A stretch of 64,000 bases of DNA, from assembly GCA_965261395.1 (NCBI GenBank), contig OZ253462.1, positions 5,184,001 through 5,248,000 on the forward strand. The letters are read 5' to 3'. Origin of the DNA: Candidatus Latescibacterota bacterium. GTDB lineage: Bacteria; Latescibacterota; UBA2968; UBA8231. Shown here piece by piece: positions 1,405 to 59,501 of the stretch. A model generated the notes under the pieces. That model was given only the letters and a program-made list of their open reading frames with translations. It did not search any database and was not told where the DNA came from. Position 1 is the stretch's first letter. Each line of letters starts with the position of its first letter. A program made the translations under genes and the position numbers.

Positions 1405-1407
1405 CTT

Positions 1408-5276: not shown

Positions 5277-5319
5277 GCTCGCGATCCCCAAGGTTTGTAG
5301 AATGTACAAATCATAATAC

Positions 5320-5356: not shown

Positions 5357-5388
5357 AATTGGTACTTAAAACTACTAGCTGTTTGCGC

Positions 5389-23157: not shown

Positions 23158-26100
23158 TCACATATACGACAGAAAATGCCCAGTCTCCCCCAGCACTCCA
23201 TCAATGCACAGCCACAATCCGGCCGCCGTCGCCTCGCCCAAAATCAGCCCTAAAAAAAATGGCTTGGCCCGCTCGTAAAGCGGCATCCCGCCCCACTTGA
23301 CAATGCCCAGTTTGAGCGCCCACGCGATGCACACTGAAAACCACACTTGATTAGCCAGCCAGCCCACGCTGACGATAAACCCCAACGGGTGCAACGGCCA
23401 CCAATAAAACCGATGGTGCCCCCACAAAAGCACGGCCTCGAAGAGTCCGCCGATGCCGGTAAAAAACCAACCCCGCCCGTCGGCTGGCAGCGGATCGACG
23501 ATCGGCCGCGCCATGTCGGTAAATGTGCGCCCGGCCTGACGGGTCATAAAGAAGGGGTGCAAATTGATCCCGCCGTGCTCGTAACACACCTGAAAAATGA
23601 TCCACGTCGCCCCGGCCAAACTCACCACCAACGCCAGCGCCATCCCCCAAAACAGCCGCCTTTTAGAGCCAACCACCGCCTCGGCCAGCTTGAGCGAATT
23701 GGCCGCGGCAATCATCGGAAAAAGCCGCATCTCGGACTGCCAGATGTAGGTAAAGGTCAGGGCCGTCAGCCCCTTGGCCCCAATCACCGGTGCGCCGACC
23801 GCGGAAATGACGAAAAACGCCGCCACCATCGGCGAACGCGCCGTCGCCAACCCGGCCGTGGCCACCGCCCGCGTGACGAACACGTAGAAGAGCAGGCACA
23901 CCAACAAAAACAGCGGCAAAATCGCCAGTGGCACCCCGGACGCCCACAGCCAGACGCCCACGAAAAACAGGCTGGCCAAAAAGCCAAAGACCGCCACCCG
24001 GTAGGAAAGCATCTCCCCTGAATCATCCACCGTTGGGTCGCCGCGCCACGCCTTGCGCCACACCGCCCCCAAGTGCTGCCGCCCCATCCACAAGGTGTAG
24101 CCGACGAAAATTAGACAAGCCCCCATCACCTCGTGCGTCAGATCCGCGGTCTGCGAGTAGGAGTAGAGACTCAGCTTTTCGCTGCTGGCAATGCCTAAGT
24201 CGGCGAAAATCCCCTCTTGTGCCTTGTTGAAGACGTAGAAGAACCAAATCGAAAAGGAAATGTTCAGGTTGACCAAATAGAAAAAGCCGATCCACGCGTA
24301 CACCCAGTGCAAATTCAGCTTATTGCCGATCCACGACAGGAGCCCAGCCGACTGAATCGGCTGCGGCACCGCCGGGAAGTAGTAGTGCAGCCCCTTGAAC
24401 GACAGCAGGACGAACGGCACCGCAAAGCCGATCCACAACAGCCGCTGCTTAAAAAGCGGTGCCAGCTTAAATCCCGGCCGGCCCTCCTCCACCATCTTGA
24501 GCGGCAGTTGCACCATGGGATAGGCCAGCCGCTCGTGCTGCGACCACTGCCGGTGCAGGATGGAACTCATGCAGAGCATCATAAAGCTCAGCACCAAAAA
24601 GAAGACGTACCAATAGCCCAGGGTCTCGCTCCAAGCCCCCCACGGAATGCTCTCCCCAGGCGGCAGCCCCTCGTGCAAACCGACAATCGCCTGCCGGTCC
24701 TGCGGTGCCAGCCACGGCGTCACGTGCGGAAAGAAAATCTCGCCCCAGTTGTTTTCCGGGGTCGCGTAGTAGTACAGCCCGCTGATGATCGGAATCAGGT
24801 AGCCGACAAACGCCTGCGTTGGCACCGCCGACGCTAGCAGCATCATCGCGTAAATGAGCACCAAATCGGCCCGCCCCAAGGCGAGGCCGCGGCCGAGCGC
24901 CCGCAGCAGGGTATTGCCCCCCACCACCAACACAAAAAACAGAAAGATCGCCCCGGGCGACGAGCTGTTGAGCGCCATGTACGACCCTTGTAGCATAATC
25001 ACCGCATAGGGTGCCCCCATGCCGATGCCCAAGGCCAACAGCGCCCCCACCGCAAACCCCCGCCAAGTAAAGGACGCCGACTGTTCCGCTGCCAACTGTT
25101 GCTCCACCCGCTCCTCGGCCTGCTTAGCCGCCAACGCTCGCGCCGACTCCACGTGCTGGACTCGCTCGGCCTCCCGGAGCGCATACCAAATCAACATCTG
25201 CTTCCGCAGCGCCTCCACCAGCCGCAGATTGAGCCGCTGCCAGTAGTGGTGCTCGCCGCTTAGTCGGCGCAGCCTGACTTCCATCGCCCGTGCACGCGCT
25301 TCGGCCGACACGAACTCCACGACCACCTCTTGGCTCACCCCCAAGTCAAACGGGGCCAACCACAGCGTAAACGAGAGGCGATAGCCGTCGGCCTGCGTAA
25401 CTTGCATATCTTCGACGTAGAAATCCCCCAGCGTCGCCCGACCAAAGGCCCCAAAGTAGTTGGCCAAAAAGCCGCACACCCCCTCGATTTCTCCCTCGCC
25501 GAGCATGAAGGGAAACTCAAACAGCCACTCGTCGCCGCTGGGCGGGTCTGGCCGCCAGCGCCGCACCACGTCCGGCACCGCCTGCCGCGCTGCCTGCCGC
25601 GCCGGATAGATCGTCGAGAGCAACACCACCCCCATCACCGCCAGCGCGGCCCCAATCGCCGCCAGCGACGAGTAGTTCAAGGTAATGCCCTGCAACAACC
25701 CCAGTGCTAACAGAACCCGCCCCAACCCCTGGCCCAGCAAGTAGCCCAGCGTCGTCCCCAGCACCGCATAGACGCAGGCTTCGGCCACAAACAGCAGCGC
25801 GATGTGCAAGGGAGCCAGCCCCACCGAGGAATAGATGCCGATCTCGCGCAGGCGTTCGTGCACCGCCCCCATCATCGCATTGAGCACAATGAGCGCGGCC
25901 ACCAGCGCGGGAATCGCCAGCGCCCCCAGCCCCTCCACAGCCGTCAGCCCCACCGAGCTCAGGGCCGTCACCTCCCCTTCCGGCGAGCCGACAAACAAGG
26001 TAGCCGCCACCCGCGTCAGATAGTCCTCGACCAGCGCCTGCCCGTCGGTCGCCCCCGGAAAGCGCACGGCCACCGAGCGCAAGCTGCCCCCGGCCTCGGC

Positions 26101-29100
26101 CAGCGTTTGATAGGGCACGAGGACCACGTGGTGCGGCTTTAGGTGGATGAAGGGCCGCAGTTCGTGTGGATCCTCCTCGTCGGCAATATCCACATCCTGC
26201 GCTGCCCCTAGCTGGAGCACCTCTGCGCCCGACAGGACAAAATCGGCCGGCATCAGACTCTCGTCGTCGAGGTCGCGCAGTTCACCCAACCGCTCCGGGT
26301 CGGCAATCCCGCGCACCTTCAGCACGCGCCCGAACACTTCGACCTGATCCCCGACCCCGATACCCAACGCCTCAGCCATGTCCAGCGGCAAGATGCAGGT
26401 GGCCTCGTCATCTGCGGCAAAAAACGATCCAGCCACCAAGCTCGCATCCACCCGGGTGATCTGCGCCTCCTCTGGCGTCAGGCCCAACAAGCCCGTGGCC
26501 CGCACCGCGTTTCCAGCCGCCGTCACCGCGATCCAGCCCCCCTTGCCGCCTTCGGCCGCGTACCAGCCGCGTCGCCCCATCCAGCCGCTGCCGCCAAAGT
26601 GCGACTCAGCGTAGTCGAGCGCCTCCGGCGTCAGGCGCTCCCAGCCGCGATCGCGGATGAGGATCCCGGGGTACGATCCAGCGTGTGGTAGCTGGAAACT
26701 CGCGTAGCGGATTTGCTGTTCAAACGAGGTAAAAGAGAGCAGGGTAAACGTCAAAAGCGTCAGCGTCGCCAGCGTCAAACCGGTGCGCAGAGGCCGCCGC
26801 CGCATATTGGAAATCCCCAGCATGAAGGCCGCATAACTCGCGCTCAAGCGGCTCAGGTCCTGAGCGTGGACCCGCATCTGCTGGCTCTGGTGCTGGGCCA
26901 TGACGCGGTTGAACCGGCTTACCAGCATACAGAGCACCAAGGCAGCCATTGCCATGATCGCAAACGCCAACAGCACCACCAGCGGCTCGGCCAGCTCAAA
27001 GGCTGGATGTACCTGCGCCAAAATCAGCCAAATCGCCAGCAATAACAGCCCAAAGCCAGCGAGCTGCCGGCGAATATCGGCCGCGGCAAACAAGAGCCGC
27101 TCCCCGAAAAAGGCCGCCGGCAACAACAGCGCCATAAAGAAGATCACCCCTTCGAGGACGTCGTTGAGCGTCGCCAAGACCTCCGGGTAGGCCCGCGTCT
27201 CCAAGCCCAGCGCCTTGCGGCTCCACGCGATGTACTCATCCCACTTTAGTTGCTCGGCCGCTGCTGCCGCCTCGGCTATGGCCGCCGCCGCCTGCGCGTG
27301 GAGGCGCGTCAACCGCTGATTTTCAATGCCGTGCTCCTTGAGCACTCCCAGCCGCGCCGCATCCAAGTTCCACACGTCTTGCGCCGCCTGCAGCGTCGCG
27401 GCCCCAAATCCCTCCTCGGCCAGCAAAAATCCCCGGCCCCGCGCCTCGACCTCGCTTTGGCTGCCCTCGCTGTTGAGCAACAAAAGCTGACCGTCCAAAA
27501 TCACTTTGACGCGATCGTCGGCCGCGGCATCGACCGGCCCGTAGATTACTCCCACCGAGCCAATGCTGCTTGGACCCAGCGCGTACCCGTACTGGCCCGG
27601 CTCGCCCCCGTCCGCTGACAGCACCTTGACTTGGTTCAACGCGCGCAAAAGGCGCGGCTCGACCAAGCCGTACAGAGGCCGACCCACCCCGGGGAAGAGC
27701 ACGGCGATCTGCTCGTTTTGCGGCCAGCGCACATTAGTGGCCAAGCGGCCATCCGCCCCCGGTTTCCCGTGGTGCGCTTGCGCGCGGGTGCTCAAATCCA
27801 CGACGTGGGTAAGCACCCCCCGCTCGGCGTCCAGCGCCGCCACCGCCAGCGGATACGTCCCCTGCACCAGCCCAGGGACCCGCGCCGTCCCGGCGGCATC
27901 CGCGAGAAAGTAGCGCGTGTCGCGCACTCCTTTGCGCTGTTCTTTTTCTACCTGCACCGCCACCAGCGCCCCGGCCACCGGCCGGTCCGGCACCTGACTG
28001 CGCCGGGGAAACGTCCGCGCTTTGACCCGCAAATCCCGCAGCCGATCCTCCAACGCCTCCTCGAGCCGCTCCCGCCCAGCCAACAGCGCCGTATCGGCCA
28101 ACGCATAGGCCAGTAGATCGGCCACTAGCGCCGCCTGTCCTTCCACATGGTCCCACGCCACGCTCTCGCCCGTGTCCTGCGGCAAATCCAGCGCAAAGCG
28201 GGCATCGCCTACCGTGGCCAGCGTCAGCGACGGGAACCCCGTCTCAAGCGCCAACTCCCCATCCGCGACCAAGCCCCCAGGCATATAGCTGTCCCAATCC
28301 ATTCCCCGAATTGGGCTGATGCCATTGGCCACCGCCTCGGCGCGGCCCAGTGCCTCCGCGTACTCGGTAAAGCGACGGCCAAAGGGCACGAAAAACCGCT
28401 TGAGCGCGTAGCTATCCGTGTTGTTCCACAGTACCACCCGCTCGCCGTGGCTGGACAAATCAAGACCAATGAACAGAGCAATATCCAGCGGCTCGGCCAG
28501 CCGGGCCGCGTAGTACTCTTGGCGGCGAGCGTGCCGGTCGAGAAAGGCGACCATGCCCTGCCGCCCTTGGAAGTGGGCACCCAGCGCGGCGATCACCACC
28601 GTGTGCGCTGGTGGGTTTGCTTGCAAGCGAGCAACCACCTCCAACAGCGCCGCTACACTCACCGCCGCCTCTGCCCCCGGTGCCCGCGCGGGCACCACCG
28701 ACGGCGCGTCGTAGTACGCATGGATGAGTACCGTCTCGTCCCGCGAGGTCCCCGCATCCTTGCCCGGCACCACCGCCCACACGTTGTACGCCACTCGCTC
28801 CTGCCAATCCATCCGCCCCCACAGCCCCACCTCCACCTCTCCATCCACCAACCGCCGCCGCAGCCGCTGTCCAGCGGCCCCCTCCACCCAAAAGCGTGGC
28901 ACATCCAACGGTGCCCGCACGTACTTGCCCTGCGCCTGCTGCGTAGTAGCCGAATCCGCAGCCACAAACACCACCGCCCGCGCCCCCAACGACGCGGCCT
29001 TCAGCCAAGCGTCCCCACTGGCAAAGTCCAGCACCACCACCCGCCCAGCCACCTCCTGCCCATTGAAATCGCCCCAATCCCCATCGCCGCCCCAAATCGC

Positions 29101-29424
29101 CGACGCCCGCAACCCCTCCGGCGGCACGGTCGAAGTCCGCGCCCCATTCGGCCACACCGCGTACAAGGGTACCGACTCATCCTCCCACTCCAACCGCCCA
29201 CCCCGGTCCATCGGCACCACCACTGCAAAGGAGTCGCGTCGCGTCGCCAGCCCCAACGCCTGCAACCGCCCCTCTACATACTCCGCCGCTTGGGCACTCC
29301 CCGGATACCCCGCCACTCGCGATCCCAGTGAGGACAAATGCTCCACAATAGCTCGCGGCTCTGCAGAAGCCGCCACCGGGCCGATGGCAAAGGCGATCAA
29401 AAAGGCGATCATCAGCGCAATCAT
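23158..29424 (-). CDS. Giant fusion: M28-peptidase-like/PA domain + FtsX-like permease + C-terminal polytopic DUF6785-like transporter domain
   Basis: Signal peptide; SRVAGYPG, HAYYD, PGAEAA (M28-like); ERLREIGIYSSVGLAPLHI (FtsX); ERLAYPMVQLP and WWPLHPLGF (DUF6785/6784-like). One continuous ORF of about 2088 aa. Confidence 0.75.
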   Translation of the reverse strand: MIALMIAFLIAFAIGPVAASAEPRAIVEHLSSLGSRVAGYPGSAQAAEYVEGRLQALGLATRRDSFAVVVPMDRGGRLEWEDESVPLYAVWPNGARTSTVPPEGLRASAIWGGDGDWGDFNGQEVAGRVVVLDFASGDAWLKAASLGARAVVFVAADSATTQQAQGKYVRAPLDVPRFWVEGAAGQRLRRRLVDGEVEVGLWGRMDWQERVAYNVWAVVPGKDAGTSRDETVLIHAYYDAPSVVPARAPGAEAAVSVAALLEVVARLQANPPAHTVVIAALGAHFQGRQGMVAFLDRHARRQEYYAARLAEPLDIALFIGLDLSSHGERVVLWNNTDSYALKRFFVPFGRRFTEYAEALGRAEAVANGISPIRGMDWDSYMPGGLVADGELALETGFPSLTLATVGDARFALDLPQDTGESVAWDHVEGQAALVADLLAYALADTALLAGRERLEEALEDRLRDLRVKARTFPRRSQVPDRPVAGALVAVQVEKEQRKGVRDTRYFLADAAGTARVPGLVQGTYPLAVAALDAERGVLTHVVDLSTRAQAHHGKPGADGRLATNVRWPQNEQIAVLFPGVGRPLYGLVEPRLLRALNQVKVLSADGGEPGQYGYALGPSSIGSVGVIYGPVDAAADDRVKVILDGQLLLLNSEGSQSEVEARGRGFLLAEEGFGAATLQAAQDVWNLDAARLGVLKEHGIENQRLTRLHAQAAAAIAEAAAAAEQLKWDEYIAWSRKALGLETRAYPEVLATLNDVLEGVIFFMALLLPAAFFGERLLFAAADIRRQLAGFGLLLLAIWLILAQVHPAFELAEPLVVLLAFAIMAMAALVLCMLVSRFNRVMAQHQSQQMRVHAQDLSRLSASYAAFMLGISNMRRRPLRTGLTLATLTLLTFTLLSFTSFEQQIRYASFQLPHAGSYPGILIRDRGWERLTPEALDYAESHFGGSGWMGRRGWYAAEGGKGGWIAVTAAGNAVRATGLLGLTPEEAQITRVDASLVAGSFFAADDEATCILPLDMAEALGIGVGDQVEVFGRVLKVRGIADPERLGELRDLDDESLMPADFVLSGAEVLQLGAAQDVDIADEEDPHELRPFIHLKPHHVVLVPYQTLAEAGGSLRSVAVRFPGATDGQALVEDYLTRVAATLFVGSPEGEVTALSSVGLTAVEGLGALAIPALVAALIVLNAMMGAVHERLREIGIYSSVGLAPLHIALLFVAEACVYAVLGTTLGYLLGQGLGRVLLALGLLQGITLNYSSLAAIGAALAVMGVVLLSTIYPARQAARQAVPDVVRRWRPDPPSGDEWLFEFPFMLGEGEIEGVCGFLANYFGAFGRATLGDFYVEDMQVTQADGYRLSFTLWLAPFDLGVSQEVVVEFVSAEARARAMEVRLRRLSGEHHYWQRLNLRLVEALRKQMLIWYALREAERVQHVESARALAAKQAEERVEQQLAAEQSASFTWRGFAVGALLALGIGMGAPYAVIMLQGSYMALNSSSPGAIFLFFVLVVGGNTLLRALGRGLALGRADLVLIYAMMLLASAVPTQAFVGYLIPIISGLYYYATPENNWGEIFFPHVTPWLAPQDRQAIVGLHEGLPPGESIPWGAWSETLGYWYVFFLVLSFMMLCMSSILHRQWSQHERLAYPMVQLPLKMVEEGRPGFKLAPLFKQRLLWIGFAVPFVLLSFKGLHYYFPAVPQPIQSAGLLSWIGNKLNLHWVYAWIGFFYLVNLNISFSIWFFYVFNKAQEGIFADLGIASSEKLSLYSYSQTADLTHEVMGACLIFVGYTLWMGRQHLGAVWRKAWRGDPTVDDSGEMLSYRVAVFGFLASLFFVGVWLWASGVPLAILPLFLLVCLLFYVFVTRAVATAGLATARSPMVAAFFVISAVGAPVIGAKGLTALTFTYIWQSEMRLFPMIAAANSLKLAEAVVGSKRRLFWGMALALVVSLAGATWIIFQVCYEHGGINLHPFFMTRQAGRTFTDMARPIVDPLPADGRGWFFTGIGGLFEAVLLWGHHRFYWWPLHPLGFIVSVGWLANQVWFSVCIAWALKLGIVKWGGMPLYERAKPFFLGLILGEATAAGLWLCIDGVLGETGHFLSYM

Positions 29425-29585
29425 AGCGTCCCAATATCGGCCCCCAACGTCCCGTATAGCAAGCAAACTAACGGACGCGGCTTTGTCGGCACGGGCTGGA
29501 GTACCGCTTCTGCGACGATTATCTTTTTGCAAGGGGGAACTTCAGCTATCGGCAAGACGTTCAAACGCAATTGAAGGAGGGCTTC

Positions 29586-30815
29586 ATGCTCTACCGCATC
29601 GCCGCTATCGGCTTCATTTTTGCCTGCACGAGTGTCGCTTGGATCATCTTGGCGCAGGTCGTATCCTACCGCACCCACCACCAAGATACCAAGCTCAAAG
29701 CCGCGGTGGGGCAATTGTGGGGCACCCCTCAGTCCCAACGCGCCCCACTCCTGTACTGGACCACCGAGGAAACCGTCGTCACACAGACCTCCGACGGCCA
29801 AGCGACAGAGCGGCGTCACCTCCTGCCCCTAGAAGCTAGCCGCCTACAAATCGATCTACATCTCGAACACCGCCGCAAGGGCCTGCTGTGGTACGCCACC
29901 TACCAAGTGGCACTAGACGCCACCTATACCGCGACCAACGCGACCGACCATCCCCTCGACCTGACCTTCGATCTAGCCCTGCCTACTTCCCAAGCTGTGT
30001 ACGACGATTTCGCCCTGTCTATCGACGGCCAACCCATCGCTCCGCTGCCTCTAGCGGAAGGGCACTTGCAACAGCCGTTGCATTTAGCGCCGGGCCAGAG
30101 TCGCCAGATCCGTCTTTCCTATCAATCGCAGGGTTTAGAAGAATGGTGGTACCGCTTCGGCGACCACGTCGAGCAAGTCTCCGATTTCGAGTTGATCATG
30201 CACACTGATTTCGACGCCATCGACTTCCCACGCGAAAGCCTAGCACCCACTCAAAAGGAGCGCACGGCCGATGGCTGGCGTCTCACTTGGCAGTACGACC
30301 GCTTGCTCACCGGGGCTTCCCTCGGCATGGTCATGCCCGCCCGACTCAATCCAGGTCCCTGGGTACAAGACGTGACCCAAGCCGCGCCCATATCCCTCTT
30401 TCTCTTTTTCTTTGTGCTATTTGTTTTCGCCGCAGTAAAAGGCATCGATATCCATCCGATGAATTACTTCTTCATCGGCGCGGCCTTTTTCAGCTTTCAC
30501 TTGCTTTTGGCCTACCTAGCAGACCACTTGCTCATCCACTACGCCTTTTTGGTAGCTGCGGTGGTGTCCGTTTTCTTGGTCGTCTCCTACATGCGGCTCG
30601 TGGTCGGCCTGCGGCTGGCCTTGATCGAGGTGGGCTTGGCTCAACTCATTTACTTGGTGCTCTTCTCCTACACCTTCTTCTTCGTCGGCTATACCGGCTT
30701 GGCCATTACCGTCCTGTGCATCGCCACGCTCTTCGCCGCCATGCAGCTTACCGGCCGGATGGACTGGTCGGCCGCTTTTGCCCAACCGCCAGCCACTCCT
30801 CAAAAATCCAAGTAG
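29586..30815 (+). CDS. creD: CreD-like inner membrane protein
   Basis: RBS GAAGGAGG; N-terminal TM, periplasmic domain (RRKGLLWY), C-terminal IHPMNY...FHLLLAYLADH multi-TM region typical of the CreD family. Confidence 0.65.
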   Translation: MLYRIAAIGFIFACTSVAWIILAQVVSYRTHHQDTKLKAAVGQLWGTPQSQRAPLLYWTTEETVVTQTSDGQATERRHLLPLEASRLQIDLHLEHRRKGLLWYATYQVALDATYTATNATDHPLDLTFDLALPTSQAVYDDFALSIDGQPIAPLPLAEGHLQQPLHLAPGQSRQIRLSYQSQGLEEWWYRFGDHVEQVSDFELIMHTDFDAIDFPRESLAPTQKERTADGWRLTWQYDRLLTGASLGMVMPARLNPGPWVQDVTQAAPISLFLFFFVLFVFAAVKGIDIHPMNYFFIGAAFFSFHLLLAYLADHLLIHYAFLVAAVVSVFLVVSYMRLVVGLRLALIEVGLAQLIYLVLFSYTFFFVGYTGLAITVLCIATLFAAMQLTGRMDWSAAFAQPPATPQKSK

Positions 30816-31034
30816 CCTAGCCCATCACCCGCAACCGCTCAGGCACCTCCACCGGCTCCCCCCACGACACACCAGCGGAAAGTGCGAACCGGCCTCGGCC
30901 ATAGGCGCATTATCGGGCAAATCGACGAACTGTTTCATAAGGTGCTCGCCGCTTTGGTCGAAGCGCGCCGCGCCGGTCATGTAGTGGATGGCAATGGCGC
31001 GGCGGGGCCGGGGCGACTGATTGAAGGGCGAGCC
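30811..31034 (-). repeat. Direct repeat copy A: displaced 3' end of the PhyH gene (frameshifted remnant)
   Basis: 224 bp matching 35652-35876 with about 8 substitutions and one 1-bp deletion (manual alignment). Confidence 0.95.
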
Positions 31035-31114
31035 TGAGCCCTTCGGGCAGAGGTTGGCGCTGAGACCAGAGTTAGGAACTACTGCATATCTTTCATCAGG
31101 GAATAAATTGTAGA

Positions 31115-34100
31115 TTATCCAAGACGAAGCTCAACGGTGATCGTAGGTTTGTCCTTCCGTGCTGTCTTCACCGCAGTCGCAGTAGCGACTATATTGCTTC
31201 CTGAGTCGATTTCAGGCGCTAGGCGTTGAGCCAGACCCCGCGATAGGAAGCCGACTTGCCCAGCCTTATGACGTACGGTGACTGCATTTGAGTCTACAGG
31301 GTTGTCATAATCTCGGCGAAGTTCAAGTTTGTCTCCTGATCTAACTCGCAGCGCAGCAATTCGGCGTTTTCCGTAGGACGCCCCAACCACTTCCTGCTGA
31401 AGAGGAAGGACTTCATGGAGCGGCCTAATTGGATTAAGTAATGGATTGATCGCCATTCTTCCCAGCTTGTATCTGAGGTCGTCGAGCACATATCCAGTAA
31501 CCTCATGTTCGTGACGCAGTGAGTCATCAGACAAGCTAGACAGCCAAGCAACGAAGTTTTCGTGGGAAGAAACATCCGAAGCTTGCTCCTCAAAGCCTTC
31601 TGCCAAGCGAAGTGCAACATCCCGCGTGGAAATTCCTATAGACATCGCCCACGAAGCCACTGGGTTAGGTAGTCCATATTTCACCATTGACGGATAGCAT
31701 CGAATGTACTCTGAAAGTCTCTCATCTTGGATGCCTAAAAACTCTTTGGAAATCCGAAGAAGCGCAGAGATAATCCAAGGCAATCTATATCCAAACAACT
31801 CTTCTACATATCGAGATATACTCTCCACCGAGTCCGTATCATCCGGTGTACTCTTAACTATCTCCTTTATAGACATTCCGTCCAACCAGTGACCAAGCAA
31901 GACCTCGGGGTCACCCTCAAAAGCAGTTGTGGTTTCTGCCTCGGGCAATTGAAGACTAGCATCAAGCACTAGGTGGTTCAATGATTCGAGGTCATCGTAT
32001 CCGGCATTGAAAAGCAGATCACGCAATTTATCTGCGTTTGCATCCACGAATTGCCTTAGCGTCTCACAAGAGGAACTGCTTAGGCCAGTTTGGGCATAAA
32101 CCCGTCGCCACGATGGGGCGGGGGCTCGCCTGAACACATTCTCAGCAGCCAGTCGAGCGGACCTGATTAGTGGATCGATATCCACATCCTGACTATAAGC
32201 CTGCTGCAGTGCGTATGTTCCCGCTAGGCTAGTGATCCATTTGTCGGAGTCGCCAAGCTCAAGCCCCTCTTCCACCACAATCGCAAGTATTTCTGGATCT
32301 AGAGTCGCCGCAGCATTCTCTATCGACTCCTCGGAAATGCGAGAGGAAACGAGTTGTTGGAGAAGTTGAAACAGTGCTCCAGAAACGGGCTCCAGATTCT
32401 TAGGATTTCTATAGTGATTATAGTCTCGTCTGTCCGAGGGATTCAGAGTTATGTGGACAACCAAGCCTTCTGTCTCATGCCCGGCACGACCAGCACGACC
32501 AGCTATGTTCCAGTAGTCACGCAGAGGAATTCGCGAGCGTTCGCCTTCTTCGTCTGCACGCCATGTGCTGTGTATAATCACGGTCCTGACAGGCAGGTTA
32601 ACACCTTGTGCTAGAGTATTGGTCGCAACAATCACTTTGTAATGACCGGCACGACAATCAATCTCAATGGCCTCTCGAACGACATTAGGCAACCGTCCGT
32701 GATGAGGAGCGACCCCTTGGGACAAGGCTTGCGTGGCGATATGTTCTTCTCCCAGCCACTCCCTCGCGAGTTTGAGAGATCTGGTCGGCACCGCACCGGC
32801 AAAGTGGGGATGGATCGGTTCTTCAGCCTGTCGCCTATACTGGATAGATTTATTGAGGATCACCTTGCATATACTCTCAACCCATTTTGGTTGTGTGCAG
32901 AACACGAGCACGGGACCTTGCTCCGAAAACACATACGCTAACTCGGCAGCAGTATCTCCCTTACCCGGCTTTGGATACTTCCGAACCCGCCTGCGCCGCG
33001 TATCAGGATTTATGAAAGAATACTCTCGTTGCTGGATAGCTCCAGGAACAAATGAATCCAAATTTGAAATTTCTGGATCCCGCTCGAATCGGATGACACC
33101 ATTAGTACCTTGCCATTCGAATAGCGCTCGTCTTTGAATTGTTGGTCGCCAATTCGACATGACAGTTCTATCAGGCGAATCCGCAAGCCATGTAGCAAAG
33201 TCTTTCAGCGTTGAATCCGGGACCACGGCGGACATTACCAAGAAGCGGCTCGTTGGCAATCTGTTCTTTATTCTGCTTAACAAAAACTCAAACTTGATAC
33301 CGCGATTTGCGTCATCCATGATGTGGACTTCATCCAACACTATCAGCTTGATCTGATCAAATACCTCTGGGCGGAGGCGCAGAACAAGGTCCAGCTTTTC
33401 GGGCGTAAGTATTAGCAGATTGGCTGTTCGCAGAAGAAACTCCTCAAATTCATCCGACTCGTAAGAACCGATGACGGATGAAACTCGATAACCCAAGTCA
33501 TTCAATACCGCCCCCATACTCCTTTCAACTTCTGATGCCAAAGCACGATACGGAGCAACAAACACGCACTTGGCTTCGGGATGCCGCTGAAGAGTGTCAA
33601 GGATGGCCATTTCTGCGATACGTGTCTTACCACCGCTGGTAGGTAAACGAATGATAGCACTATCATTTGAATCCAGGAAACCAGATTCAAGCACTTTTAT
33701 CTGGGATGGCCATAGTTCAGTCACTCCACCAGATAGGGGCCTTGCAAGAAGAGTCAAGTAACGCCTCCACACTTCAGATTTCCTGGAATGGCGCTCAAGC
33801 TGGGACCAAGTGCTTCGCTTTATCATTAGCGGGAGCACTGATTGAATTCCATACGCGATGTTCGAGTGTAATGGAGCGCCGAGTCCAGTGAATATCTTAG
33901 TAGCTTCACCCAACAACTCCATCGCTTCACGATATGCCGGTTGAGCACCACTCAGAAAAAAACGGCACGCTTTGGATAACCCGTCTGCAAGAACGACTTC
34001 ACCCAACTCTAAAGATAGAGCATCTAGGGGCAGCTCAAGGTCTGGTGGGAACTGGAGGAGACGATTGGCAAGCTGCTCAGTAACAATTATCCTCCGTTGT

Positions 34101-34549
34101 ATGAACGACGCGACAAGTGCCAGGGCATCCGCCCTCGAATCGGGTTGAGGCTCGGGCAAGACTTCCTTAGCGAGATATGCTGCGTTGGCTTGGTAGCCTG
34201 CAAGTTCGTATGCTAGGGCAGCATTGAGCAGGGCGGTTGGCCTTGTTATTCCCTCGGTTAGTTCAGCTAGACTCTCCCACGCGAGAGCGAGTTGGCGCGA
34301 GTGTCCTTCATTTCTTTTTGCATAGTCTGGATCAGCAAGGGTCGCTGCCTCAAGCGCGTACAAAGCGGCGGCTGAATTTCGAGAAAAACGATTTGCAACA
34401 TAGGTCCAGTGCGGGGGGTGCTGAAGCTCGCCTATGGCCTGCAATGTTGCCTTCGACCTAACCTGAGCCAGTTCGCTCTGGAATCCTGGGTCGGCCAACA
34501 CAGATTGCATACGAGATTGCAAATCAATGTGAGTGTCATTGGTCATCAT
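31115..34549 (-). CDS. hamB: Hachiman HamB-like SF2 (Ski2-like) DEAD/DEAH helicase with C-terminal HIRAN domain
   Basis: LPTSGGKT, TPEK, DEVH, SAV, HHGRL, TNTLAQGVN and AGRAGR motifs; C-terminal VVGASY...LELRRDYDNPVDSNAV...VGFL (HIRAN); low GC; start overlaps hamA. Confidence 0.82.
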   Translation of the reverse strand: MMTNDTHIDLQSRMQSVLADPGFQSELAQVRSKATLQAIGELQHPPHWTYVANRFSRNSAAALYALEAATLADPDYAKRNEGHSRQLALAWESLAELTEGITRPTALLNAALAYELAGYQANAAYLAKEVLPEPQPDSRADALALVASFIQRRIIVTEQLANRLLQFPPDLELPLDALSLELGEVVLADGLSKACRFFLSGAQPAYREAMELLGEATKIFTGLGAPLHSNIAYGIQSVLPLMIKRSTWSQLERHSRKSEVWRRYLTLLARPLSGGVTELWPSQIKVLESGFLDSNDSAIIRLPTSGGKTRIAEMAILDTLQRHPEAKCVFVAPYRALASEVERSMGAVLNDLGYRVSSVIGSYESDEFEEFLLRTANLLILTPEKLDLVLRLRPEVFDQIKLIVLDEVHIMDDANRGIKFEFLLSRIKNRLPTSRFLVMSAVVPDSTLKDFATWLADSPDRTVMSNWRPTIQRRALFEWQGTNGVIRFERDPEISNLDSFVPGAIQQREYSFINPDTRRRRVRKYPKPGKGDTAAELAYVFSEQGPVLVFCTQPKWVESICKVILNKSIQYRRQAEEPIHPHFAGAVPTRSLKLAREWLGEEHIATQALSQGVAPHHGRLPNVVREAIEIDCRAGHYKVIVATNTLAQGVNLPVRTVIIHSTWRADEEGERSRIPLRDYWNIAGRAGRAGHETEGLVVHITLNPSDRRDYNHYRNPKNLEPVSGALFQLLQQLVSSRISEESIENAAATLDPEILAIVVEEGLELGDSDKWITSLAGTYALQQAYSQDVDIDPLIRSARLAAENVFRRAPAPSWRRVYAQTGLSSSSCETLRQFVDANADKLRDLLFNAGYDDLESLNHLVLDASLQLPEAETTTAFEGDPEVLLGHWLDGMSIKEIVKSTPDDTDSVESISRYVEELFGYRLPWIISALLRISKEFLGIQDERLSEYIRCYPSMVKYGLPNPVASWAMSIGISTRDVALRLAEGFEEQASDVSSHENFVAWLSSLSDDSLRHEHEVTGYVLDDLRYKLGRMAINPLLNPIRPLHEVLPLQQEVVGASYGKRRIAALRVRSGDKLELRRDYDNPVDSNAVTVRHKAGQVGFLSRGLAQRLAPEIDSGSNIVATATAVKTARKDKPTITVELRLG

Positions 34550-35312
34550 CGACTACCTCCACTTCAAGCTCCAAAAATGCCGCGTCAGTGAGTTGCCTAA
34601 GACCAGTGATTCTTGCAATGTACACATGTAGATGTTCAATATCAAGATTTTCGTCTTCAAGATTTTCGAGGATCCGCTCATCCCATATGGTATTTTCATA
34701 TAAGATCATCAAGAGAAACTCATCCAGCTCAGCATCACGATCAAATATGTAGGCTTCGATCAATTCTGTAAGTGGATCACCCGTTTCTCGCAGTTGGCGA
34801 GCCACAAAGGTCAGGATTTCAGAATCCACGTTGTCCGCATCTTCCTGTAGTTGCTTTGTTCCTTGAACAGCTACAGAAAGGTCTGCAGAAGTGCGAAATT
34901 TCGACTCGACGAACGCTACTTTGACGAGCTTACCATCAGAAAATTTAAATGCAATACAGTCGGTTCCGGGTAGGGTCTGATTCGCACTGATTTTGTACCT
35001 GAGCTTCATCACGGGGACACGATAGCCTTCCACGGTCTTGAGATATTCAACGGTTACGGCTTCCCCAAAATCGCCGCGCCTCACTGAGGGCAGCATCCCT
35101 GCACGGGACCTAAGAATTTTGTCGCGAACTTCCCCGTATCCGTATCTTGCTGCTACATTGGCGAGGTAGTCAGTGTCCCAATATGCGTCGGTCATAAGAT
35201 CGGCGAATTCGGCAGCCGATGGTACTGAATTGGTCTCTTTGAGGTCAGTGACCTTAAATGAAAAGCTAGAACCTGCTCGTAGAGCCGGGTTTAGCCAGTT
35301 AACTATATTCAA
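34536..35312 (-). CDS. hamA: Hachiman HamA-like (DUF1837) nuclease
   Basis: RRGDFGE...KLRYK...PGTD...ESK PD-(D/E)xK pattern; lies directly upstream of, and overlaps, the helicase. Confidence 0.8.
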   Translation of the reverse strand: MNIVNWLNPALRAGSSFSFKVTDLKETNSVPSAAEFADLMTDAYWDTDYLANVAARYGYGEVRDKILRSRAGMLPSVRRGDFGEAVTVEYLKTVEGYRVPVMKLRYKISANQTLPGTDCIAFKFSDGKLVKVAFVESKFRTSADLSVAVQGTKQLQEDADNVDSEILTFVARQLRETGDPLTELIEAYIFDRDAELDEFLLMILYENTIWDERILENLEDENLDIEHLHVYIARITGLRQLTDAAFLELEVEVVDDDQ

Positions 35313-35502
35313 GGTGTCCTTTCTTGGAGTATCGAGTAGAATCGAGGTTGTCCTTCGTTTCGGTTGGCAACGGAAGCGTGATACTCATCGGCCTCAAGGC
35401 CCTACTGCCATCTGGTACCCTTATCCGGGCGCGATGACCGCCTCCAAACGCCACTAAACGCCACTAGTGGTGAGACCAGAGTCGTTTCTTTTTAGGTTCC
35501 AT

Positions 35503-35530
35503 GATGGTTATCTCTTTGAGGATAACCATC
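35503..35530. promoter_or_regulatory. Inverted repeat (operator or hairpin) upstream of hamA
   Basis: GATGGTTATC-tctttgag-GATAACCATC, perfect 10-bp arms. Confidence 0.4.
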
Positions 35531-35651
35531 TGAACGGACTCAAGCGTAAATGCAGAAGACCACCCGAGGCGCTTCGTATGGAATTTCTACGTTCCGATCG
35601 CGGCAACGACGGGATTTACCGAACCGTCAGCTAATCCTCGTCAGTCCGAGC

Positions 35652-35876
35652 AGTAGCCTAGCCCATCACCCGCAACCGCGCCGGCACCCCCACCGGCTCC
35701 CCACCGCGACACACCACCGGAAAGTGCGAACCAGCCTCGGCCATAGGCGCATTATCGGGCAAATCGACGAACTGCTTCATCAGGTGCTCGCCGCTTTGGT
35801 CGAAGCGCGCCGCGCCGGTCATGTAGTGGATGGCAATGGCGCGGCGGGGCCGGGGCGACTGATTGAAGGGCGAGCC
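35652..35876 (-). repeat. Direct repeat copy B: 3' end of the intact PhyH gene
   Basis: Matches 30811-31034. Confidence 0.95.
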
Positions 35877-36542
35877 GTGCCAAGTCATCGAGTGATGGAA
35901 GGAGACTTCCCCGCGCATCACGGGGCACGGCCGGGCCTCGACCTCGCGGATCTCGGAGTCGGCTGGCGGAGTAAAGCCCTGTAGGTCCTTGAAGTTTTCC
36001 AGCAGCGACAAATCTCCCTGCGTGCGCAAAAATGCAATCTGGTTGCCCCACTTGTGGCTGCCGGGCACCATCCACATGCAGCCGTTGTCCTCAGTCGCGT
36101 CGTCCAAGGGAATCCACGCCGAGACCGGCGTCATCGGCTTGATAATCGGCCACAAGGGCGCGTCTTGGTGCCAGTGAGTCGAGCCGCCGTAGCGGGCAGG
36201 TTTGTACTGGATTTGGTCGTGCCAGACCTGGAGGTCGTCATGGCCGGTAAGCTGGCTGATCCCCCGGACGACAGCCGGGTGGTAAATTAGCCGCTCCCAA
36301 GCCGACGCGGCCTCCCAGATATTGACGATCTGCCACACCGGATGCTCGCTGACGCCGCCCCCGCCGGCTAGGTCGCGGAAGGATACCGGCTGCGCTTCAC
36401 CTGGGGCAAAGCCGTCCGGGCCTTTGGTCAGAATCTCGTCGAGCGCGTCGCTCAATTCGCCGAGCTCTTCGTCGGAGAGCACCCGCCCGCCGTTGAGAAA
36501 GCCGTTGCAGTGGAATTCGTCGATCTGTGCTTGCGTGAGCAT
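35658..36542 (-). CDS. Phytanoyl-CoA dioxygenase (PhyH) family Fe(II)/2OG oxygenase
   Basis: MLTQAQIDEFHCNGF, WHQD, NGCMWMVPGSHK, WHGS..N.S..PRRA motifs. Confidence 0.9.
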   Translation of the reverse strand: MLTQAQIDEFHCNGFLNGGRVLSDEELGELSDALDEILTKGPDGFAPGEAQPVSFRDLAGGGGVSEHPVWQIVNIWEAASAWERLIYHPAVVRGISQLTGHDDLQVWHDQIQYKPARYGGSTHWHQDAPLWPIIKPMTPVSAWIPLDDATEDNGCMWMVPGSHKWGNQIAFLRTQGDLSLLENFKDLQGFTPPADSEIREVEARPCPVMRGEVSFHHSMTWHGSPFNQSPRPRRAIAIHYMTGAARFDQSGEHLMKQFVDLPDNAPMAEAGSHFPVVCRGGEPVGVPARLRVMG

Positions 36543-36561
36543 CGTCCATCCTTTCACCGAT

Positions 36562-36589
36562 GTAGGGGCGACCGGCCGGTCGCCCCTAC
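36562..36589. repeat. GTAG-type REP-like perfect palindrome
   Basis: GTAGGGGCGACCGG|CCGGTCGCCCCTAC, 28-bp perfect palindrome overlapping the stop codon at 36586. Confidence 0.7.
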
Positions 36590-39072
36590 TGCATTCGCCG
36601 GAGCAGCTCGCCCCGAGCCTCGTTGAACAGGCCAATCAGCCGCTGGCGAATCGCCTCGTCGCGGAAGACGCCGATCCTTTCGGCCCAAGCAATGCCACCT
36701 TCGAGGTGCGTCAGCAGATAATTGCCCTCCGCTGGCGCAAACGCACAGCGTCGGCCCACGTCGATATAGACCGGCGAGGAATGGGCCATCACTGGGCCGG
36801 CGTCCGTGTGGTGCGGCCCCCAGCAACGGGCCGCGACCCAGCAGGAATGCTTGGCCTTGAGCTTGAACTTCAGTTCGATCTGCTGGGCACCGGACGCGGC
36901 GACTTCGCGCGCGACCGACTCGCCATTGCAAATAAGCTCCAGCCCGGTAAGCGGCCAGACGCTGTCGGCAGTCGCTACCACTTCGACGGTGCCGCCATTA
37001 CCGGGTAGGTGGATTTCCTCGCCCATCTCCCGCCCCTCGACCTGTAGGTTGATCATCGCGCCCGTGCTGGCAAAGGTCTGGCCGCGCCGCACGGCTTGAC
37101 ACCAGTTGTCAAAAGTAAATTCCTCGCCGTCGCGCAGCTTAACATACGTGCGCGAGCCGCCCAAAATGCGGCCGTTGGACATCTTGTCGGTGCCGCCGAC
37201 AATCGGCAGCTTCTGACCCACGTTGAGCCAGCGGTAGTAGCCCTGCTCAGCCGAGCTGATCTGCTCGCCCTCCCAAATCCAGCACATCTCACCAGCGTCG
37301 GCGTGGCCCAAGACGATGTTGGCCGCGTTCTCAAAGTCGGGCAGCGGCATGTGCGGCATGATGACCAGCCCGCCCTGTTTTTTGCACTCCTCGGCCCAAT
37401 CGGCCATCAGCGCATCCACCGAGCCGCCAACCCAATCCTCATTGGCCCCGCCGGTACACATCGGCGCGACCAGTTCCTTGAGACCGAGCAAGCTGATGTG
37501 GCCAAGCACGTGTTGCCGGTTCTCCTGGCTGACCCAAACCAAGTGCTCGTCGCTGCTAGTTGGTGCCAGGCCGCCGGTAAACTCCTCCCACGAGGTAAAC
37601 AGCCGACCCCACTGGCTGGCCAACAGATGCACCACATTGAGGTCCTCGCCCTCGGCCTCTAGGTGAGCCGACTGGGAGGAGAGAAAATGCACGTGGGTAT
37701 CCCCCGAATAGTAGCCGCGCTGCTTCATGTCGAAGGCGCGTTTGACCTTGAGAGTCAGCGCGTTCTGTCCGGGCTTGATCTCGACCCGCTGGCGCAGCGG
37801 CTGGTACTCAAAACCGCGCACTACCTCCGCGTACACCGGGCCGATGGGCAAGTCGATCTGGCAGGTACCGTCAATGTACGCGTAGGGCACGCCCCCGGTC
37901 TTGCAGTCGCCGCCCATGTCCTCAAACCACGCCACATTGACGTCGGCTTGGTGGCCGTGCGGTGCCAGATAAGCTCCGTGCTCGGAGCGGAAGTGGACGC
38001 GGGTCCCTACGGGCTGGCCGGTATCCGCGTCCTCGACCCGCACGTGAACCCACTGCTTGCCGGACGGCGCGACGACCTCAATGCGCACTTTGCCTTGGGC
38101 GACCTTCTTTTCTTTCAGCACGTCGCCCCAGCAGATGCGCTCTTCGTCGTCCCCCGTCTTGATGGCGAGTTGACCTTCGGCTGAGCCGTGGATTTCCAGA
38201 TAGCCACCAGCGACCGTTTCTTGGCCGCCTCGTCCCCAGCCTGCCTCCTCGGAAGTGAGGAAATCTGCACTCGGCACCCAGAGCTGATCCCGACGCACGA
38301 TTTCGCCGCGCTCCATCGCCACTTCGGGCGCTCCTGCGGCATCGACCCGCAGCGCCACCTCCTGACGCGCCGGCCAAGCAAAAGGATCGCGCTCCTCGTG
38401 GCAGAGCGTAATCCCGGCCAAAGCTAGCGCCGTAGAGCCAGCCGCCGACACCGCGATCGCTGCAATCTCCTTGTCGGGCGCGGGATTTTCCCAGTCGTAG
38501 AGCCACCAGCCTTGGAGATCGCTACCCTCGCGCGTAAAGGTCCCGGTCTGCACCATGCCATAGCTGTGCTCGCGGCTGTCCAGCGGCACCGAGTAGAAAT
38601 GGCGGCAGTTGCGACAGAGAAAGGGATGGTGCCCCCAAGGCACCTGCACGTCGTGGATTTCAAAGCGACGACGCAGCGGCTGCTCGACCGAACTGCCGTC
38701 GGCATAGAGGACTCGATAGGTGCCAATCTCTTCGCCCGTGCCCTCGACCGTGGCCCATGCCTCCGGCACCGGCGCACAAGCGTGGGCGTAGAGGATGCGT
38801 CGGGCCTTGGCGCTTATCGGGATCTCCGCCGACGCATTCACTCCACCCCCGGCCTTTTGCGCCACCAGCACCACGGCCCGGTCAGCCCCTGCGGCTGCCA
38901 AGCTAAAGGGCACGCCCCAAAACTGCTGCTCGCCCCAAGGCAGATTCACGAGCGGAGTATGGTCGGGCGCGTCGTCGGGCGCCGGCCAGAGCTTGTCGCT
39001 TTCAGACTCAGCATTGCCGGTGCCAGCGTTATACGTTGCGCTCAAATCCAACGGCACAAACGGATCGTTCAT
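36586..39072 (-). CDS. CehA/McbA-family PHP-domain metallohydrolase
   Basis: YSGDTHVHF, ENRQHVLGH, MPH, GGTD and AHSSPVY motifs. Confidence 0.82.
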   Translation of the reverse strand: MNDPFVPLDLSATYNAGTGNAESESDKLWPAPDDAPDHTPLVNLPWGEQQFWGVPFSLAAAGADRAVVLVAQKAGGGVNASAEIPISAKARRILYAHACAPVPEAWATVEGTGEEIGTYRVLYADGSSVEQPLRRRFEIHDVQVPWGHHPFLCRNCRHFYSVPLDSREHSYGMVQTGTFTREGSDLQGWWLYDWENPAPDKEIAAIAVSAAGSTALALAGITLCHEERDPFAWPARQEVALRVDAAGAPEVAMERGEIVRRDQLWVPSADFLTSEEAGWGRGGQETVAGGYLEIHGSAEGQLAIKTGDDEERICWGDVLKEKKVAQGKVRIEVVAPSGKQWVHVRVEDADTGQPVGTRVHFRSEHGAYLAPHGHQADVNVAWFEDMGGDCKTGGVPYAYIDGTCQIDLPIGPVYAEVVRGFEYQPLRQRVEIKPGQNALTLKVKRAFDMKQRGYYSGDTHVHFLSSQSAHLEAEGEDLNVVHLLASQWGRLFTSWEEFTGGLAPTSSDEHLVWVSQENRQHVLGHISLLGLKELVAPMCTGGANEDWVGGSVDALMADWAEECKKQGGLVIMPHMPLPDFENAANIVLGHADAGEMCWIWEGEQISSAEQGYYRWLNVGQKLPIVGGTDKMSNGRILGGSRTYVKLRDGEEFTFDNWCQAVRRGQTFASTGAMINLQVEGREMGEEIHLPGNGGTVEVVATADSVWPLTGLELICNGESVAREVAASGAQQIELKFKLKAKHSCWVAARCWGPHHTDAGPVMAHSSPVYIDVGRRCAFAPAEGNYLLTHLEGGIAWAERIGVFRDEAIRQRLIGLFNEARGELLRRMQ

Positions 39073-41665: not shown

Positions 41666-42454
41666 ATGGCTTGGGGGACCGAGTTATGCAAAAAAGCAGT
41701 CAGTACAAGGGATGTCAGATTAGTTTTTCTGCGTGTTGACCCACAGGCTCAGACAATAAGCTCAATCCTCGTCCTGACCCCAGATTATATCGAGAGAAAA
41801 TTCGGACGCTTTGGTAAGCCGACGATTAAACACCAAATCATAATTCCGCCAAAAGTTAGAGATAAGGCGCTAGATCAAACTCCGCCGGGCATTTTCTGTT
41901 CAGATACGTCTGCTCTTTCTCAACATGTAACGGGGAAGTATGCTATTCCGACCTCTCCAATAGGTGATAAACCTATTTTGGATCAGCTATTTTCTTTGAA
42001 ATTGCTGCGAGAAATGCTAGTGGATGGGCTAATTGGTGAACCATTGGATCAAATGGCTACAAAAAACAGAGGGCAAGCGTTAGAGCGCTTGGTTGCTTGT
42101 CTATTAGGCTACAAAATTAGTGATGCTGAGCTTTTAGAGGGGAATTTTCCCGATATTCCCAACCAAGCCTTGGAAGTCAAGGTACAGGATTCGCCGACCG
42201 TAGATCTAGGAAAATTCAGTCCCCAGTTCAAAGAGTGCGTACCGTCCTGTCCTAGCTTAACGACGTTAGATGTCCGCTACTTGATAGCCTTGACTGATGC
42301 AGAGACGGGCATTGTTCAGGGGATAATTTTATGTCCTGGTGAGAAGTTAGGTGAGCATTTTTCATACGTAAGCGACACTAGTTTTAAGTGCCAAAGATCA
42401 ATCCCTATGTCTTTTTTTCATACGTACCAAGGCAAAGCACTTTACAATCCCTGA
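41666..42454 (+). pseudogene. Type II restriction endonuclease (probable cognate of the BseCI/ClaI-like MTase), probably 5'-truncated
   Basis: RGQALE...FPDIPNQALEVK PD-(D/E)xK motif; low GC; convergent with and overlapping the MTase 3' end. No convincing start or RBS at the GC transition near 41700. Confidence 0.6.
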
Positions 42455-42573
42455 GACGAGAGTAGCGGCTCGACGCCAAAGGCTTCCGCTACAACAATCT
42501 CTAAATCAGTCTCATATTTCTCGGTCATATTGTCGCCTACGTCAGCCGACACCAACTTTTTCACCAAATCTAC

Positions 42574-43758
42574 GGCTTTGGTGCATGAATTGGTGTTTTT
42601 TTCGGTTGATCGGTTGAATAAAAACAGGCTCCTCAGTAGATTGAGCACGACTTTCGCCAAAAAACCCATGCTTTCTCGTCCAAGGAACCTGTCATGGCCA
42701 ACCTATCGTCTTGCCCCTCTTCCGTCAAGCCTGGTCGCTCGCCTCGCCGTCGCTCCAACGTCGTGTACCGGGTACGTAATTGGGCCGACTATGAGGCCGG
42801 GCTGCAACAGCGCGGTAGTCTGACGGTGTGGTTCACGCCCCAGGCCGTCGAAGCTTGGTATTATCAAGGGCCGCCTCAGCGGGGGGCGCAATATACCTTT
42901 TCGGAGGTCGCCATCCAAACGGCGTTGACGCTGCGTCTTTTGTATCACTTGCCCCTACGCCAAACCGAGGGGTTTGTCGCTTCGGTGTTGGCCCTGATGG
43001 GCTTGGATCTGCGGGTGCCCGATCACACGACCCTGTCGCGCCGTCAGGCGGGTTTAGCCGTGGCGTGGCCGCCCCAGCGGGGAGACCAACCGATGCACTT
43101 GGTGGTGGATTCGACCGGGCTGAAAGTGTATGGCGAAGGCGAATGGAAGGTGCGTCAGCACGGCTGGAGCAAGCGGCGCACGTGGCGCAAATTGCACCTC
43201 GGGGTTAATGAAGCCACCGGCGAGATCGTCGCGCAGACCTTGACGACGAATAGCCACGATGATGCGGGGCAGGTGGAGCCGTTGCTGGCACAGATCGAGG
43301 CCCCCGTGGAGGCGTTGGGCGGCGATGGGGCCTATGACAAACGCAAGGTGTTCAAGGCGTTGGCCGCGCCCGAGCAGGGGGCACCTATTCATCCGATCAT
43401 TCCGCCGCGCAAGGACGCCAAAATCGAGCAACATGGCAACACCAACGCCGAGCCGTTGCCCCGCGATGAGACGATTCGAGCCATCCGCAAACGGGGCCGT
43501 CGAGGTTGGAAACACGAGAGCGGCTATCATCGACGCTCGGTAGCCGAAACGCAGATAGGCCGCTACAAACAGATACTTGGTGACACCTTGCGCACCCGAA
43601 CCCTAACCAACCAACAGACCGAAGCGCGGTTGGGCTGTGCCTTGCTCAACCGGATGCGGGCGTTGGCGAAACCTGAGTCCTATCCGCTAACCAAAAAAGC
43701 GTAAATCACACGCGAAAGAAGCCAACACGGCCCCGACCGGTTTTCATGCAACAAAGCC
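42574..43758 (+). mobile_element. Complete IS5-family (IS903 group) insertion sequence, 1185 bp
   Basis: TIRs GGCTTTGGTGCATGAA and TTCATGCAACAAAGCC (15/16 match); 9-bp target duplication CAAATCTAC at 42565-42573 and 43759-43767. Confidence 0.95.
42694..43704 (+). CDS. IS5 family DDE transposase
   Basis: YRVRNWADY...RGSLTVW, VVDSTGLKVYGEGEW, WRKLHL, DGAYD and YHRRSVAET motifs. Confidence 0.95.
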   Translation: MANLSSCPSSVKPGRSPRRRSNVVYRVRNWADYEAGLQQRGSLTVWFTPQAVEAWYYQGPPQRGAQYTFSEVAIQTALTLRLLYHLPLRQTEGFVASVLALMGLDLRVPDHTTLSRRQAGLAVAWPPQRGDQPMHLVVDSTGLKVYGEGEWKVRQHGWSKRRTWRKLHLGVNEATGEIVAQTLTTNSHDDAGQVEPLLAQIEAPVEALGGDGAYDKRKVFKALAAPEQGAPIHPIIPPRKDAKIEQHGNTNAEPLPRDETIRAIRKRGRRGWKHESGYHRRSVAETQIGRYKQILGDTLRTRTLTNQQTEARLGCALLNRMRALAKPESYPLTKKA

Positions 43759-58192: not shown

Positions 58193-58225
58193 GGAGCCGC
58201 TTTTGCAGCGCCGATGGCCTGTGAG

Positions 58226-58984: not shown

Positions 58985-59037
58985 CCCCGATTATTTCGTT
59001 GCGACTTCACAATGGATTGCAGCTAATGGCTATTTGG

Positions 59038-59451: not shown

Positions 59452-59501
59452 AGGTCATTTTCCTTGCTTTTTTTGCAAAAAATGCACATATTATTGCCCT
59501 A

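Follow-up and report, generated by a model that had tools for sequence, protein, structure and literature searches.

A mobile hamAB cassette of Candidatus Latescibacterota encodes a Hachiman-type helicase with a C-terminal HIRAN domain

The window analyzed here is a stretch of 64,000 nucleotides (nt) from a Candidatus Latescibacterota bacterium (assembly GCA_965261395.1, contig OZ253462.1, positions 5,184,001-5,248,000 of the forward strand), and all coordinates given below are window-based. On its minus strand it carries two genes, hamA and hamB, that encode the nuclease and the helicase of a Hachiman pair, and the helicase ends in a HIRAN domain. hamA lies directly upstream of hamB on the same strand and in one operon, with the hamB start overlapping the hamA stop by 14 nt. 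The two genes and the parts of the helicase, with lengths and residues in amino acids (aa), are as follows:

34536..35312, minus strand: hamA, encoding a 258-aa DUF1837/HamA nuclease with the PD-(D/E)xK residues D118, E136 and K138
31115..34549, minus strand: hamB, encoding a 1144-aa Ski2/Hel308-like superfamily 2 helicase
33740..34549, minus strand: N-terminal all-helical bundle of HamB (residues ~1-270; the secondary structure of the model is helices only up to ~270)
32480..33706, minus strand: helicase core of HamB (RecA1 and RecA2; Pfam DEAD 282-450, Helicase_C 608-690)
31118..31417, minus strand: HIRAN domain of HamB (residues ~1045-1144; the Pfam match at 1053-1132 corresponds to nt 31154-31393)

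The only domain found in HamA was Pfam PF08878 (DUF1837; E 2e-9, 38.1 bits against a cut-off of 25). HamA also matched the PADLOC HamA1 model PDLC00159 (2.6e-21, residues 6-232) and, by phmmer, the solved E. coli HamA (8vx9_A, E 1.6e-7); the reference for type I-A Hachiman HamAB was the E. coli ECOR31 system (PDB 8VX9, 8VXA, 8VXY; Tuck et al. 2024, PMC12278908). D118, E136 and K138 fall in the stretch aligned to the T-E-A-K site of E. coli HamA (catalytic E138/K140), although the HMMER alignment is two residues out of register at this site and the equivalence rests on the motif and its neighborhood. The D-ExK site of HamA is intact.

Besides HIRAN (PF08797), Pfam identified DEAD, Helicase_C and ResIII in HamB, and helicase motifs I (GGKT, 306-309), II (DEVH, 406-409) and VI (GRAGR, 684-688) are all intact. 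The best PADLOC models for HamB were HamB1 models, with PDLC00192 (1.5e-124) followed by PDLC00194, PDLC00174 and PDLC00188, and the match to PDC-M23B was weaker (1.2e-80). The HamB model aligned with the E. coli chain 8vx9_B from chain residue 1, including the N-terminal helical bundle, which is the HamA-binding region in the solved E. coli homolog (Tuck et al., PMC12278908). No NCBIfam family scored above its cut-off for HamA, HamB or the HamB tail; the best sub-threshold matches of HamB were Hel308-type repair helicases (e.g., 178.7 bits against a cut-off of 887). The first-pass annotation had read the two genes as a Hachiman HamA-HamB pair, and the DUF1837 match above cut-off in the upstream gene, together with the PADLOC HamA1 and HamB1 matches, bears this out.

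The same annotation had placed a HIRAN domain at the C-terminus of HamB, and this domain is confirmed as a genuine, canonical HIRAN by Pfam, by phmmer and by Foldseek of a structural model. The Pfam match (E 8.6e-10) reached 38.8 bits against a curated cut-off of 24.7, and 43.4 bits in a six-frame search of the genome. In a plain phmmer search, the last 119 aa of HamB matched the HLTF HIRAN (4xzf, E 0.0036) as well as lp_0118, a HIRAN protein from bacteria (3k2y, E 0.089). A model of residues 1005-1144, based on an alignment of 52 clade members, had a mean predicted local distance difference test score of 89.1, and Foldseek matched it to 3k2y (E 4.7e-6) and to HLTF 4s0n (7.6e-6) with 28% identity and a root-mean-square deviation of 2.2-3.1; VIA-align was also run exhaustively against 48,161 representative chains. 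The predicted fold is a six-stranded beta-barrel with two helices, superposable on solved HIRANs (references HLTF/Rad5 PDB 4S0N, 4XZF, 4XZG, 5BNH and 6L8O, and bacterial lp_0118 3K2Y).

The motif N1083-P-V-D1086-S-N1088-A of HamB aligns on N-P-Y-D-K-N-A of HLTF, where D94 recognizes the 3'-OH and Y72 and Y93 pinch the two terminal bases (PMC5773155). R1062, R1079, D1086, N1088 and G1100 are invariant in the 52 clade members (alignment A1), and the Asp at 1086 occupies the position of the 3'-OH-reading D94. A further conserved aromatic nearby is Y1081, which is Y or F in 52/52. As a separate observation, a homolog (P0011) is 84% identical to the window hamB overall, 69-77% over residues 500-1000 and 98-100% over the last ~150 residues; this pattern suggests recombinational exchange of the HIRAN-bearing C-terminal module (residues ~1000-1144, nt 31118-31550) between hamB alleles.

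When the whole HamB was compared with its relatives, HIRAN was found in 110 of the best 120 clusters (built at 90% identity; 40-99% identity to HamB); six of the ten clusters without it are shortened (723-1115 aa) and four are of 1098-1170 aa. When the 140-aa tail was searched by phmmer against 1.84 billion 50%-identity representatives, 651 matches were obtained at E <=1e-3, 70 of them at E <=1e-10, and among the best 150 matches 24 were proteins of 1119-1174 aa matched at their C-terminal end. A Pfam scan of 22 proteins among these best 150 found HIRAN above cut-off in every one; 19 also had DEAD and/or Helicase_C in a HamB-like layout (10 full length and 9 N-terminally cut), and the remaining three (P0227, P0239 and P0130) had other architectures, in which related HIRANs form part of a RecJ (DHH-DHHA1-RecJ_OB)-HIRAN-DEAD helicase of 1309 aa, occur twice in a UvrD-like helicase or stand four in tandem. 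A homolog search restricted to residues 1040-1144 returned the same clade only (30 proteins).

Within the phylum of the window, a HamB-like match at E <=1e-30 was found in 13 of 168 genomes, of which four (the own genome, G142, G146 and G140) match through profile position 1144 and nine match in the core only. Pfam found HIRAN in none of the nine helicase open reading frames (ORFs) of these core-only genomes; four of the nine were scanned by PADLOC, which assigned three to PDC-M23B and one to the E. coli type. In a sample of 401 Chloroflexota genomes, with two candidates scored per genome, seven had a match and three of these were of the full-length HIRAN type. Close relatives occur in metagenome-assembled genomes of Latescibacterota, Dehalococcoidia and Chloroflexota, and a hamA-sized ORF of 256-258 aa lies upstream of hamB in 6/7 related loci. 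A HIRAN-type hamB in a Caldilineaceae metagenome-assembled genome (L007) is preceded by a hamA (5233-6011) that falls into two ORFs, of 101 and 158 aa, whether through a frameshift, decay to a pseudogene or faulty assembly. A tblastn match was present in 105 plasmid records, and in five of these, from Streptomyces or Kitasatospora, the alignment extends through residue 1115; in RefSeq, plasmid NZ_CP108060.1 carries a "Hachiman antiphage defense system protein HamA" and next to it a "DEAD/DEAH box helicase" of 1199 aa, and this helicase has a HIRAN match of 28.7 bits.

The 119-aa tail alone matched no PADLOC HamB model at E <=1 and matched PDC-M03B only, while in the HamB1 models PDLC00192 and PDLC00174 the last ~110 profile positions stay unmatched. 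The whole HamB scored 415 bits on its best HamB model, compared to 1286-1398 bits for members of catalogued subfamilies on theirs. Because the HamB models miss the domain and the whole-protein score is low, this clade has no dedicated model in PADLOC 2.0. In the full text of the literature, with supplements outside the scope of the search, no paper was found that links HIRAN with Hachiman, HamB, DUF1837 or phage defense, and the word HIRAN is absent from the text of the main Hachiman papers that were searched; the supplementary phylogenies of PMC12278908 and PMC11914072 may show the clade without naming the domain. Bacterial HIRANs have been discussed for the HipN/HipL kinase modules (PMC8262856), diDNase neighborhoods (PMC11706625) and CoCoNuT comparisons (PMC10542128). 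The HIRAN tail is the standard architecture of a large HamB clade, widespread but apparently undescribed. The earlier statement that HIRAN lies outside the HamB architecture holds for the solved and catalogued forms and fails for this clade; the notion of a rare or odd fusion was not borne out by the clusters, by the counts in the phylum and in Chloroflexota or by the Streptomyces plasmids.

The solved E. coli HamB has a C-terminal "OB-like" barrel, and its helicase core holds a bound 3' end whose 3'-OH is contacted by a conserved threonine (Tuck et al., PMC12278908). As judged from the model, HIRAN appears to sit where E. coli HamB has this barrel, replacing it and adding no new position. Single-sequence and profile alignments to 8vx9_B stop at query residue ~1007 and chain residue ~1057, and in these alignments no homology between the barrel and HIRAN was seen; when the full-length profiles were compared by hhalign, the alignment ran no further than columns 1027/1032, and hhalign of the two C-terminal domains alone gave a probability of 0.1%. 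A protein of 1174 aa, the length of E. coli HamB, that is HIRAN-positive (P0192) was considered as a bridging sequence and rejected, as its alignment covers the core only and it is no nearer to 8vx9_B than the query is. One genome of the same genus (G137) has an E. coli-type HamB, which aligns with 8vx9_B through chain residue 1156 with 735 bits and matches PADLOC PDLC00174 at E 0; PF08797 was found in 0/120 of the best related clusters of this protein.

A tree inferred with IQ-TREE from 57 rows (38 HIRAN-bearing, 13 E. coli-type and 6 labelled PDC-M23B, 3 of them PADLOC-confirmed) needs one change of the HIRAN state and puts the E. coli type at the end of a long branch (1.86), which meets two HIRAN-bearing groups in an unresolved trifurcation. 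Row selection followed the HIRAN trait, other HamB1 subfamilies were left out, columns beyond residue 1030 were omitted and long branches meet; a single origin of the HIRAN state is compatible with this tree, a hint that, with rows chosen in this way, would fit a change in either direction. A speculative and rather unlikely extension is that HIRAN was the ancestral C-terminal module of type I-A HamB, that the OB-like barrel of E. coli is its degenerate remnant and that HIRAN-type HamB has two 3'-end sites. If true, the HIRAN pocket and the core threonine together could allow recognition of gapped or forked phage replication and recombination intermediates, a prokaryotic immune counterpart of fork recognition by HLTF/Rad5.

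The surroundings of the pair indicate that it was acquired horizontally. The GC content falls from 0.61-0.65 to 0.45-0.55 exactly over 31100-35600, a cassette of 4.6 kb, which is bracketed by direct repeats of ~225 nt that are 94-97% identical and spaced by 4841-4842 nt. The features of this setting are:

35313..35651, minus strand: low-GC upstream spacer, presumed promoter region (GC 0.50 at 35300-35599, compared to 0.63-0.65 beyond 35600)
30811..31034, no strand assigned: left direct repeat, which duplicates the 3' end of the PhyH gene
35652..35876, no strand assigned: right direct repeat, formed by the 3' end of the PhyH-family dioxygenase gene that is resident at the site (35658..36635, minus strand)

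A promoter scan upstream of hamA, including the spacer, gave no convincing sigma-70 match, and a scan after hamB gave no terminator, with 3 terminator-like sites observed and 4.7 expected. Five genomes of the same genus without hamAB at the site were compared: in G130, G135 and G131 a single repeat copy joins a CreD-like gene to PhyH, representing the empty site; in G129 the position is taken by ~2.3 kb of other DNA, and G139 shows the PhyH side alone within the compared stretch. HIRAN-type hamAB is found at the same site in G142, G146 and G140, with ~6.8 kb of further DNA in G146 and partial similarity in G140. Since the empty site, other DNA and hamAB all occur at this position in relatives, the pair is mobile cargo at a variable site. 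There are no tRNA genes in the window that could serve as an integration target, and no integrase was found among the flanking CreD-like and PhyH ORFs, in which it was sought; the site resembles a small hotspot for variable cargo that lacks both integrase and tRNA.

Other features of the window include an element of 30-35 nt at ~36554-36594, just upstream of the likely PhyH start, which recurs at 97-100% identity on both strands (36 matches listed in the own genome, G000) and also in genomes of the same genus; it looks like a dispersed REP-like repeat. The regions 42000-46000 (GC 0.50-0.53) and 58000-62000 (0.46-0.53), compared to ~0.62 elsewhere, may be other acquired islands. Finally, one ORF of 2124 aa (23158-29532, minus strand) combines Peptidase_M28, a MacB periplasmic core, FtsX permease, DUF6785 (404 bits) and DUF6784, a membrane-protein fusion of unusual size.

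Hachiman ranks with the more common anti-phage systems, and its published mechanism turns on the recognition of aberrant DNA, above all 3' ends, by HamB. In the solved E. coli system, HamB restrains HamA and activates it on engaging damaged or 3'-ended DNA. In the window system, HIRAN may capture free 3'-OH ends of single-stranded or recessed DNA, such as nicks, gaps, resected ends and replication or recombination intermediates; such capture would tether HamAB to these ends and deliver the strand to the 3'-to-5' helicase core or position it there, HamA would be freed or activated by ATP-driven ratcheting, and DNA degradation would follow, resulting in abortive infection. By analogy with HLTF, a role of HIRAN in sensing 3' ends is plausible, and the first-pass proposal of a 3'-end sensor that may detect phage replication intermediates is a reasonable one; the ordinary Hachiman mechanism probably applies, with HIRAN serving as an additional or alternative head that binds 3' ends. 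Taking the two together, we favor with moderate confidence the joint reading that the pair is a horizontally acquired two-gene type I Hachiman system, with predicted anti-phage activity, in which HIRAN would act by end capture. Several points weigh against this reading. The HLTF Y93 position is V1085 in HamB, with V, L or I in 49/52 clade members, and the stacking Tyr is thus not conserved; Y1059, which is aromatic in 49/52, lies outside the aligned stretch, and its correspondence to HLTF Y72 is presumptive. The HIRAN tail may not be needed for end sensing, the CreD-like and PhyH genes that are the immediate neighbors are not defense genes, and no report of experiments with a HIRAN-type HamB was found.

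In a possible, although on balance less probable, explanation, the 3' end is sensed by the helicase core, as it is in E. coli, and the HIRAN tail is a structural or generic barrel binding single-stranded DNA, interchangeable with the OB-like barrel of E. coli HamB, that stabilizes the helicase or adds unspecific DNA affinity. The tail appears to hold the same position as the E. coli barrel, for which no DNA contact in the solved complexes is reported in the available text of PMC12278908; type I-B HamB functions without any such domain according to the available text of PMC11914072, and one stacking tyrosine of HLTF is not conserved. However, the HIRAN pocket motif, including the 3'-OH-reading Asp, is invariant in 52 sequences down to 40% identity, which exceeds the needs of a scaffold, and the C-terminal module has apparently been exchanged as a unit between alleles, as in P0011. 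It is improbable that HIRAN is instead a regulatory or self-control module that sets the activation threshold, for example by parking HamAB on host 3' ends or forks, or by being autoinhibitory until displaced, and does not detect phage DNA. HIRANs do occur in the proposed antitoxin or regulatory parts (HipN and HipL) of HipA-like kinase systems (PMC8262856) and in the PADLOC candidate PDC-M03B, the best PADLOC match of the HamB tail, and over-active Hachiman is toxic (PMC13064477); this explanation nevertheless has no direct support, and HIRAN lies beside the helicase, where its distance in sequence from the N-terminal bundle that binds HamA leaves no obvious way to gate HamA.

A function outside immunity, with the pair acting as a DNA-repair or fork-remodelling helicase-nuclease, a bacterial analog of HLTF/Rad5 or Hel308, is very improbable. 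While the best, sub-threshold NCBIfam matches are Hel308-type repair helicases and fork reversal is the best-known role of HIRAN, none of the NCBIfam repair models comes near its cut-off and the HamA and HamB defense models fit much better. Moreover, the pair is patchy within one genus, forms a low-GC cassette at a variable site and is also found on Streptomyces plasmids, and this patchy distribution counts against a repair role because a housekeeping repair gene would be vertically conserved.

Under the end-capture reading, Hachiman as a whole would still be seen as a nuclease-helicase system of abortive infection. In a large natural clade, a poorly understood barrel is apparently swapped for a domain with one established activity, the binding of 3'-OH DNA ends, and HIRAN-type HamB could therefore serve as a directly testable handle on the sensing step. 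It also extends the parallel between eukaryotic and prokaryotic helicase-HIRAN fusions across genome maintenance and immunity. In HLTF/Rad5, HIRAN is found at the N-terminus of a SWI2/SNF2 double-stranded DNA translocase with a RING domain, which serves fork reversal, whereas in the window it forms the C-terminus of a Ski2/Hel308-like helicase that has a nuclease as its partner, with Val at the Y93 position.

Among bacterial HIRANs, HipN/HipL of the HipA-like kinase modules (PMC8262856) and PDC-M03B, the nearest PADLOC match of the tail (PDLC04347, E 1.5e-7), share mobile or defense contexts with the window system; they are, in contrast, small stand-alone or kinase-linked proteins and not helicase fusions, and their functions are putative. 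The own genome also encodes a second, weaker HIRAN-like protein of 265 aa (G000:C1:2828205-2831498; L009, ORF 1378-2175, minus strand; also L024 8889-9662; PDC-M03B 2.7e-73), whose gene directly adjoins the gene for a type I restriction R subunit. In a genome of the same class (G083), PDC-M03B and HsdR are likewise neighbors, beside a PDC-M23 pair. PDC-M23 and type I-B Hachiman/AbpAB (PDB 8ZUE; PMC11914072) are likewise pairs of a nuclease and a Ski2-like helicase. They differ from the window system at the C-terminus: HIRAN is absent from all nine same-phylum HamB-like ORFs that were compared, including the three confirmed PDC-M23B, and type I-B HamB is described in the available text of PMC11914072 as lacking the WH and OB domains altogether.
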